NCBI GenBank assembly: GCA_964364425.1
Contig: CAYIMB010000001.1
Location: 6,941-70,940, forward strand
Length of the DNA: 64,000 nucleotides
DNA from: an uncultured Gammaproteobacteria bacterium
GTDB lineage: Bacteria > Patescibacteriota > Patescibacteriia > UBA9570 > JBBTWU01
Direction: 5' to 3'
A program made the translations under genes and the position numbers. The notes under the pieces are model-generated. The model did not search any database. It saw nothing but the letters and a program-made list of their open reading frames with translations, and was not told the DNA's origin. This document shows positions 34,371 through 35,336 of the stretch, piece after piece (position 1 is the stretch's first letter; each line of letters starts with the position of its first letter).

Positions 34371-35336
34371 ATGGCTGGCGGACTTCAAATTCTCAAAAAA
34401 CGGATCAAGTCTATTCAGAGCACCAGGCAGGTGACCAAAGCTATGGAGGCTGTTTCAGCTTCCAAAATGCGTAAAGCGGTGGCCAAAGCACTGGCCTCCC
34501 GTGATTATGCTGGCTTAGGTTGGGAAGTGGTGCAACGTTTGGCTCAGTCCTCTGATGTGTTAGAACATCCGTTGTTTGTAAAACGTGAAGTCAAAGCTAG
34601 TTTATTGATTGTCTACACTTCTGACCGTGGTTTGTGTGGAGCTATGAACGCTCAACTCTTGCGCCAGGTTAGTAAATGGATGAAGGTCAAACAATCTGCT
34701 GGAGTCAAGGTGAAATTAATTACGATTGGCAAGAAGGGTCAGAACTCTTTGCGTCGCTTAGGCCTGACACTGGATCAAACCTATGTGTCTCTTGGTGACA
34801 AACCTTCTTCTGTTGCTTTGCGGCCAGTGGCCTCGTCAGTTATGCAATGGTTTCAGTCCGGTGAAGTGGATGAAGTGGTGGTTGCTTATACTGACTTCAA
34901 AAGCTCATTGACTCAGGTTCCGACCATCAAAACCTTGTTACCTTTCTCCGCTGCGATTTTGGAGACCAGCGGAGATGTCGTCAGCTCGGGGGAGCGCGCT
35001 CATCCGGGAGCTTCAAACACCCTTCTTCGCGCATCTCCCCTTGCGCTGCCGCCATCTCCTGCAGATCGAAATTGGAGCGAATATATCTTTGAACCGGGAC
35101 AAGAAGGAATTCTGAACACGCTTATTCCGCGTTTGGTTGAGGTGCAAGTATTTCAAGCGTTGTTGGAATCAGTTGCGAGTGAACAATCCAGCCGTATGGT
35201 GGCCATGCGTAACGCCACAGACGCGGCTTCTGACATGATTAATGACTTAAACTTAACTTATAACCAGGCCAGGCAAGCCGGTATCACCCAAGAAATTGCT
35301 GAAATTTCGGCAGGTCGGCTCGCACTAGAAAATTAA
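34371..35336 (+). CDS. atpG: F-type ATP synthase subunit gamma, containing an in-frame ~30-aa insertion encoded by a repeat element
   Basis: Conserved gamma N- and C-terminal helices. Start set at the ATG after the atpA stop. Confidence 0.9.
34989..35053 (+). repeat. Copy A of a ~60-nt hairpin repeat, in-frame within atpG
   Basis: About 87 % identical to the copy at 37215-37276; core reads GGAGCGSGCTCATCCGGGAGCTTCAAWCACCCTTCTTCGCSCATCTCC. Confidence 0.7.

Follow-up and report, generated by a model that had tools for sequence, protein, structure and literature searches.

The window analyzed here is a stretch of 64,000 nt from a metagenome-assembled genome of groundwater (Hainich) Patescibacteria, or candidate phyla radiation (CPR), and its subject is a GC-rich palindrome that lies in frame inside atpG, the gene for the gamma subunit of F-type ATP synthase. 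Our analysis suggests, with a probability of roughly two-thirds, that positions 34980-35050 of the window are a copy of a lineage-specific, GC-rich palindrome family similar to REPINs and to Rickettsia palindromic elements (RPEs), and that this copy was inserted in a variable loop of the gamma subunit, is translated and tolerated there, and has its hairpin kept at the DNA level. The core of the element comprises two inverted arms of ~26 nt and an 11-nt loop, with 71 nt conserved and ~92 nt once outer arms are included, and at least three copies are present in the 64 kb. The family is new, although its kind is known, and it does not constitute a new kind of system.

A palindromic repeat family with one copy in frame in atpG

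The F-type ATP synthase operon lies at 30902-37190, and its last genes are atpA, atpG, atpD, and atpC. The atpG product is 100% identical to NCBI MEK7539795.1 (P0001 in our protein search). A repeat search of the window aligned 34984-35049 with 37210-37275, both on the + strand, at 88% identity across 66 nt, bearing out an earlier note, made from the sequence alone, that had described a structured repeat in atpG with an intergenic relative. The consensus offered in that note matches exactly two sites in the window, one in atpG and one after atpC, with 0 expected in 100 shuffles, and the coordinates it gave for them (34989-35053 and 37215-37276) fall inside the element as delimited here. Both of these copies are real, but a diverged third copy at 57735-57810 had been overlooked. 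It was detected with a covariance model, R1, which was trained on eight copies from the window and its relatives and was used to scan the window together with about 60 kb of DNA from relatives. The three loci in the window, followed by the genes around them, are as follows.

34980-35050, + strand: copy 1, 71-nt core, in frame in atpG (R1, 97.8 bits at 34976-35056; signature at 34984-35037)
34969-35060, + strand: copy 1, extended palindrome, in which the core is bracketed by the locus-specific outer arms GGAGATGTCGTCAGC and GCTGCCGCCATCTCC; one continuous hairpin
37206-37276, + strand: copy 2, core, in the 99-nt spacer between the convergent atpC (+) and ORF 37290-37673 (-) (R1, 98.6 bits at 37202-37282)
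About 37196-37291, strand unassigned: copy 2, extended; A-tract, long hairpin, and T-tract, with flanks AAAATAAAAAC.. and ..GTTTTTGCGTTTTTTATTT
57735-57810, + strand: copy 3, diverged, between the dCTP-deaminase gene and the thymidylate-synthase fusion gene (R1, 41.9 bits, E 3e-8)
34371-35336, + strand: atpG, F1 ATP synthase gamma, 321 aa (Pfam PF00231, E 2e-89); host gene of the in-frame copy
36726-37190, + strand: atpC (epsilon), the operon's final gene (Pfam PF02823, E 1.3e-22)
37290-37673, - strand: open reading frame (ORF) convergent to atpC
56621-57724: dCTP-deaminase gene
57820-59256, + strand: thymidylate-synthase fusion gene

All nine copies known when it was designed share the fixed-spacing signature GCTCRG-N17-GGAGCnnCAAnnACC-N10-CATCTC. 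In the relatives it is present in L001, L002/L003, L004 (two copies), L005, and L008, and inspection revealed it both in copy 3 (57741-57794) and in a tenth copy, on the JGI contig L014. Four conserved blocks stand at constant spacing in copies 1 and 2 and in the diverged copy 3, and the copies have a GC content of 60 to 65%, compared with 43 to 49% in the window. An assembly artifact is excluded by the presence of the insert in independent assemblies (NCBI/ENA, Logan, and JGI).

Weaker R1 matches (8585-8669, 9208-9263, 43188-43241, and others, all at no more than 13 bits) were inspected and proved to be unrelated hairpins. One of these, at 9208-9263, is a 56-nt near-perfect palindrome (CATGGGGACAGT...ACTGTTCCCATG; -31.7 kcal/mol) that sits exactly between the starts of the divergent genes 8608-9210 (-) and 9263-9679 (+); its sequence is unrelated to the element, and it is probably an operator.

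The hairpin is maintained by compensatory changes

Every copy is an imperfect palindrome consisting of two inverted arms of ~26 nt, with conserved asymmetric bulges, an apical stem of 3 to 6 bp, and an 11-nt apical loop, AGCyyCAAwyA, that is conserved in all copies. The two arms mirror one another as inverted copies, one reading GGCTCAGGGGAGCGCGC.. and the 3' arm reading GGCGCAGGGGAGATGCGCG.. once reverse-complemented. Fold energies range from -31 to -49 kcal/mol, with z scores of -3.5 to -6.4 for the full palindromes. The sequence at 34966-35062 folds as a single continuous hairpin (-44 kcal/mol, z -3.5), the post-atpC copy folds on both strands (-42.5 kcal/mol, z -6.4, on the + strand and -48.9 kcal/mol, z -5.7, on the - strand), and copy 3 has a matching hairpin architecture (-40.5 kcal/mol, z -5.5). 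The outer inverted-repeat arms differ from locus to locus, being GGAGATGTCGTCAGC/GCTGCCGCCATCTCC in atpG, AAAACCGCAACAGCGGC/GCCGCTGTTTTTGCGTTTT after atpC, and GCGAGGC/GCCTCGC at copy 3.

In an alignment of eight copies, 93.4% of the cells in the 23 predicted pairs are paired, compared with 80.6% in column shuffles (a value at least as high was reached in 0/500), and controls in which the partners were slid gave only 44 to 58%. Pair-preserving changes on both sides were observed in 10 of the 23 pairs, a number equaled in 1 of 500 shuffles, and this covariation upholds the word "structured" in the earlier description of the repeat. At least one compensatory pair within atpG itself alters the encoded residue: GGG/CCC in the window corresponds to GGC/GCC in L002, and the change recodes Pro to Arg. 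Since this pair alters a residue, it is the hairpin and not the peptide that is conserved.

The element occupies a variable loop of the gamma subunit and is probably translated

A phmmer search against all PDB chains split the gamma query into two parts, residues 1 to ~195/201 and ~233 to 319, leaving residues ~196 to 232 unmatched. This split holds for nearly all bacterial and mitochondrial gammas among the matches listed, and the full-length chloroplast gammas 6fkf_g and 22vl_D aligned with the query in a single stretch. The loop holding the insert is at what we take to be the site of the regulatory insertion in the gamma subunits of chloroplasts and cyanobacteria. The segment is likewise absent from Patescibacteria gammas of ~299 aa that are ~50% identical to the query, so that the description of the insert as missing from canonical gammas applies both to solved bacterial structures and to these nearer homologs. 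An AlphaFold2 model of the protein has the canonical gamma fold, with a mean predicted local distance difference test score (pLDDT) of 79.6, and pLDDT falls below 50 only at residues 198 to 241, between a confident strand (186 to 191) and the C-terminal helix (245 to 321). The atpG copy is thus predicted to form a disordered loop that follows the last beta-strand of the globular domain and precedes the C-terminal helix, and the low-confidence stretch with its confident flanks agrees with the earlier suggestion of a tolerated surface loop ahead of that helix.

The earlier peptide was correctly placed in frame, within the intact ORF 34371-35336, and the relatives extend this observation. Seven insert-bearing alleles have six different lengths (102 to 147 nt between the anchors described below), and all of them keep the frame and contain no stop. 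When the window-type element is reversed, it places a TGA in the frame used, so that the same allele is not open in both orientations; the naturally reversed alleles L001, L004, and L014 have CGA at this position. Because the frame is strictly maintained and the stop codon has been removed in the reversed alleles, the atpG element is probably read through by the ribosome as a segment of ~24 aa. A GC-rich hairpin inside an essential gene might instead be left untranslated, either bypassed, as in T4 gene 60 and the mitochondrial "byp" elements, or removed from the mRNA, and yeast mitochondria are known to have mobile hairpins that are bypassed. A skipped segment would be under neither a frame constraint nor a stop constraint; the seven in-frame alleles of six lengths and the loss of the stop from the reversed elements therefore make this explanation extremely unlikely, and we rejected both bypassing and splicing on these grounds.

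Relatives carry the element at the same site in both orientations

Ten gammas of 67 to 89% identity were found, all from groundwater-type assemblies. Allele DNA was compared for eight full-length relatives and a truncated JGI gamma (P0011) across the region between the LPFS and EY(I/V/L)FEP anchors. At the atpG site, the window, L002, and L005 have the element in forward orientation, and L001, L004, and the truncated P0011/L014 have it reverse-complemented; the peptide ..GDARGRVIEAPERARS.. of L001 and L004 is the translation of the opposite strand. In both the window and L001, the element starts 30 nt past the LPFS codons and is 71 nt long, in opposite orientations (blastn, 86% over 71 nt, minus strand). 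Another hairpin occupies the site in L012 and L008; its reverse complement reads GGCTCAGG...CCTTGCGCC, with the same termini and a different interior, and this hairpin is preceded by a 10-nt remnant of the reversed state. The element is absent from the site in L006 (P0007) and L007 (P0010), and these empty alleles fold no better than shuffled sequence.

A neighbor-joining tree of the gammas with the loop removed, which is a single-gene tree and weak, places the empty P0010/L007 at the base and interleaves the other states. The alignments indicate that the atpG segment is an insertion and not an ancestral feature, because the basal P0010/L007 and all of the ~50%-identical outgroups lack it; the reading of the segment as an ancestral loop is ruled out by the empty alleles together with these outgroups. 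They also indicate that the element is old, since it is shared by relatives with gamma identities as low as 72%. The element would have entered a naturally variable gamma loop after the split from the P0010/L007 lineage. The earlier note had proposed an alignment with orthologs to delimit the insert and had held that its presence in gammas of unrelated genomes would speak for an ancestral feature. The alignment delimits the insert and finds it missing from the basal relative, and the ~50%-identical outgroups do not carry it. The view of the segment as an insertion thus stands, but the insertion is not private to this genome, since relatives of 72 to 89% identity share the site, in both orientations.

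Two close pairs of gammas have opposite orientations, the window and P0002 (89% identity) and P0005 and P0011 (89% across 185 aligned residues), and because these pairs are independent, at least two flips must have occurred. Such flips may have arisen by inversion in situ, by way of the element's own and flanking inverted repeats, or by template switching; reinsertion at the same site would be an alternative to a flip in situ. All cases of opposite orientation involve separate lineages, whose gammas are at most 89% identical, and none was seen within a single lineage.

The recurrent flips bring to mind a programmed intragenic inverton, in which the 71-nt segment would be flipped reversibly within populations by a recombinase or a hairpin-driven process to yield two gamma isoforms. 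Both orientations occur at exactly the same 71 nt with an open ORF in each, at least two independent flips have taken place among gammas of ~89% identity, and the segment is bracketed by inverted repeats (GGAGATG...CATCTCC and its own arms). The loop is, on our understanding, where the chloroplast gamma has its regulatory insertion, which is consistent with the one-stretch alignment of chloroplast gammas. Recoding intragenic invertons do exist in Bacteroides (bioRxiv 10.1101/2023.03.11.532203). We nevertheless think this explanation very unlikely, given that the opposite orientations separate species-level lineages and that stop-removing substitutions are fixed in the reversed alleles; a simple flip of the window allele would accordingly truncate gamma. 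In addition, the scanned ORFs of the window include no recombinase gene, the arms adjoin a very short loop, which would be unfavorable for recombinase synapsis, and the intergenic copy flips as well, where no recoding is at stake.

In L014 (JGI 3300036859, Ga0376077_0443436; 919 nt), the gamma ORF traverses the reversed element at ~757-919 and continues into the 3' end of a convergent, unrelated ORF. Either the assembly joined two copies into a chimera here or the rearrangement is real, and in both cases the junction hints that this genome has another copy at a different place.

The post-atpC copy resembles a terminator and may exchange sequence with the atpG copy

Two of the three window copies are intergenic and lie at gene 3' ends, as REP and REPIN sequences do; the atpG copy is genic. 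The post-atpC copy, between convergent genes, has an A-tract ahead of the hairpin and a T-tract behind it and therefore presents a T-run on both strands. This layout recurs after atpC in L004 and L008, with the element oriented forward in L004, as in the window, and reversed in L008, and the copy is absent in L006, where the spacer measures 15 nt. The arrangement suggests that the post-atpC copy acts as a bidirectional intrinsic terminator of the atp operon and the convergent gene. There is no T-tract after the atpG copy and a poor one at copy 3. A separate small hairpin is found just upstream of, or overlapping, the 5' end of the post-atpC element (L008, 3400-3425, GCCGCAAGTAGCGGC; window, 37200-37213, CCGCAACAGCGG); this hairpin might represent the terminator that atpC originally had, the element having inserted beside it or within it.

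Over their central 32 nt, the two window copies are 97% identical, and so are the two L004 copies despite their opposite orientations. Between the window and L004, the same 32 nt are 75% identical for the atpG copies and 75% for the post-atpC copies. Since similarity within a genome exceeds that between genomes, the copies appear either to exchange sequence by gene conversion or to be renewed from a common source, and within-genome homogenization by one of these routes seems the likely outcome. It is because of this homogenization, the compensatory stem changes, and the whole-element flips at the same 71 nt that we would attribute the upkeep of the hairpin to DNA-level processes rather than to selection on the peptide.

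Concerted evolution within genomes would also be expected of a local event, in which ectopic gene conversion or template switching placed a duplicate of the operon's own terminator hairpin in atpG, 2.2 kb upstream, and the copies later exchanged sequence. The two best copies are indeed 2.2 kb apart in one operon, both atp copies are syntenic in relatives, and no copies turned up in the public collections searched. Such an origin does not account for the third copy, which is 20 kb off and has the same architecture and conserved blocks, for the L012/L008 subfamily, with its shared termini and different interior, or for the reversed atpG copy of L014, whose position against the 3' end of an unrelated gene suggests a further copy there. 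We therefore regard a purely local origin as unlikely.

It also seems improbable that the hairpins form a functional mRNA element of the atp operon, such as a processing or stability site or an attenuator, that sets relative gene expression and is selected for that role. Conservation of both atp copies across relatives is what such an element would predict, as is the upkeep of stems within coding sequence by compensatory changes, including at least one that replaces Pro with Arg. On the other hand, the element occurs in either orientation relative to transcription, and reversal turns G-U pairs into A-C mismatches and the loop into its complement; the atpG copy lacks a U-tract; and P0007/L006 and P0010/L007 manage without the element at both positions. 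Nor did the window yield an Rfam match at gathering thresholds, the best subthreshold hit being to plant microRNA hairpins at 22 bits against 79 (E 0.41), far below gathering scores.

Searches for further copies and for a mobilizing enzyme

A number of results weigh against the view of the atpG segment as one copy of a mobile, translated palindrome family. The known loci number only three, and two of these belong to the atp operon and are syntenic in relatives, so that these two are old and their mobility is not demonstrable. By Pfam, no transposase, RAYT-like protein, or site-specific recombinase is encoded by the 53 long ORFs scanned out of 54 in the window (atpB, at 30902-31738, is the unscanned one). 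No exact match to the signature was obtained from 185,579 species genomes, from the JGI metagenome contigs, or from IMG/VR, although the JGI collection does not contain the 919-nt L014, which does match, and the zero for metagenomes is accordingly weak evidence. When a concatenated translation covering five of six reading frames, each in two variants, was used to query 5.8 billion proteins, only P0001 and P0002, both gammas, were retrieved, in a search that is insensitive below ~34 bits. Direct target-site duplications were looked for at all three window copies, and none was found; inverted repeats flank the copies instead. Insertion into the loops of preexisting hairpins could account for the missing duplications, as could template switching that extended the palindrome outward. 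Neither the conserved apical loop nor the locus-specific outer stems are explained by such a family, and translation of the insert and terminator activity are both inferred.

No insertion sequence, and hence no candidate parent element, is present in the window, and a blastn search against 50,697 phage records gave no match that would point to a phage origin. The recombination-type proteins recognized by Pfam in the window are RecO, RmuC, UvrD/AddB-like, GyrB, and similar proteins only. The RmuC-family gene is at 19842-20798 (+); in Escherichia coli, RmuC reportedly keeps inversions at short inverted repeats in check.

Other features of the window

Two of the proteins just mentioned contain inteins. 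The gene at 38151-42182 (+) encodes a UvrD/AddB-type helicase-nuclease of 1343 aa with an intein at ~aa 284 to 647 (Pfam Hint and Intein_splicing), and its orthologs in the relatives L004 (967 aa) and L006 (979 aa) have none. GyrB (51315-54011, +; 898 aa) carries an intein (Intein_splicing, aa 458 to 662) directly ahead of its Toprim domain. The fusion gene that follows copy 3 (57820-59256) belongs to a dcd/thy/tmk/dut nucleotide gene cluster, and its product has an unusual composition, with an MtrA-like domain at aa 2 to 153, thymidylate synthase at 226 to 380, and PterinBD-DUF4346 at 392 to 468.

Coding palindromes in another lineage and their significance

A different palindrome provides a parallel in Candidatus Uhrbacteria (L013; GCA_016187515.1, JACPJN010000009.1), where gamma has two in-frame hairpin inserts, with fold energies of -40.8 and -68 kcal/mol. 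The second of these is a member of a family of ~40-nt palindromes, CATAACCC..CCTCCCCTTACCTTAAGGGGAGG, whose translated peptide is HNPsQPpLTLRGGE. The family is found in frame in gamma, in beta (an insertion of ~16 aa relative to the window's beta), in a GT4 glycosyltransferase, and in an AtpI-like protein, as well as between genes, with at least eight copies in 21 kb. The sites on this contig are as follows.

3981-4017, 5148-5266, 5703-5740, 5879-5922, 10661-10790, 11613-11651, 13391-13413: sites of the L013 palindrome
10316-10423: further hairpin insert in L013 gamma

The 450-nt spacer between atpG and atpD of this contig is full of long palindromes. The L013 case implies that coding palindromes are not peculiar to one gene or lineage in Patescibacteria, and it makes the analogy with Rickettsia drawn in the earlier note an apt one, since here too a palindrome sits in frame in several genes. 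Literature searches for coding palindromic repeats in CPR/Patescibacteria found nothing relevant.

In the lineage of the window, an essential subunit of a rotary motor has thus long carried a selfish-looking hairpin in frame, at a site that is evolutionarily restless, with flips, replacements, and homogenization with a terminator-like sister copy. These observations bear on how the proteins of reduced genomes gain new surface loops. For annotation, inserts of this type inflate the number of apparently novel loops in CPR proteins and break assemblies, as contig L014 illustrates, and for ATP synthase biology, the insert site coincides with what we take to be the position of the regulatory insertion of photosynthetic gammas. 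A bolder interpretation, which we hold to be a long shot, would make the element a self-inverting cassette that flips or exchanges at a switch-like rate and recodes the gamma loop to give alternative rotor isoforms in populations; more broadly, short coding palindromes would be a general and hitherto undescribed force in the evolution of protein loops across Patescibacteria, in convergence with Rickettsia.

Comparison with known systems

Coding palindromic repeats are textbook knowledge for Rickettsia. RPEs (Ogata et al. 2000, 2002) are in-frame, translated elements at permissive sites (PMC10969869). The family described here resembles them in that palindromic repeats occur both between genes and in frame in housekeeping genes, adding a peptide at a permissive site, and in that the host is a host-dependent bacterium with a small, reduced genome. 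It differs in its length (a 71-nt core compared with about 100 to 150 bp), in the single coding copy shown so far (of three in 64 kb) instead of dozens, and in its sequence, as far as can be told, and its phylum, both of which are unrelated; with host phylum and length so different, homology with RPE-1 to RPE-10 would not be expected. The one-site flips and within-genome homogenization seen here are not described for RPEs in the review PMC10969869.

In architecture, the element is similar to REPINs, which likewise consist of two inverted imperfect units of ~26 nt forming one long bulged hairpin, lie at gene 3' ends in either orientation, are homogeneous within a genome, and have no target-site duplications. 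REP and REPIN sequences are mobilized by RAYT (Y1) transposases and are extragenic by definition; in contrast, the present family has a coding copy, and no RAYT was seen among the scanned ORFs of the 64 kb. The mechanisms of spread and flipping are inferred. Like miniature inverted-repeat transposable elements, the copies have terminal inverted repeats (GGCTCRG...CYKGCGCC), which are present even in the variant subfamily, but the direct target-site duplication of such elements is lacking. The pneumococcal SPRITE is a further dispersed repeat with a terminator-like hairpin and T-tract, an arrangement that the post-atpC copy shows on both strands; its sequence and host are unrelated, and the atpG and third copies have no T-tract of this sort.

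At the protein level, the insert is comparable to the regulatory insertion of chloroplast and cyanobacterial gammas, which also adds ~30 to 40 residues after the LLP(L/F)S strand and ahead of the (Y/F)E(P/Q) motif that opens the C-terminal helix. That insertion is a conserved, folded beta-hairpin with redox cysteines, whereas the segment described here is derived from a repeat, hypervariable, and predicted to be disordered.

With regard to orientation, recoding intragenic invertons share with the atpG element an intragenic segment that is bracketed by inverted repeats and gives a full-length protein in each of two orientations. For invertons, inversion was shown within clonal populations and attributed to invertases (bioRxiv 10.1101/2023.03.11.532203). 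In the present case, the orientations differ only between lineages, stop-removing substitutions are fixed, and no invertase is encoded nearby. Hairpin-associated inversions and template-switch mutations, as in chloroplast spacers and quasipalindrome correction, produce recurrent, homoplasious flips and compensatory-looking stem changes much like those observed here. These inversions usually affect the loop only, whereas in atpG the whole imperfect palindrome, with its asymmetric bulges, has been inverted within a coding region.

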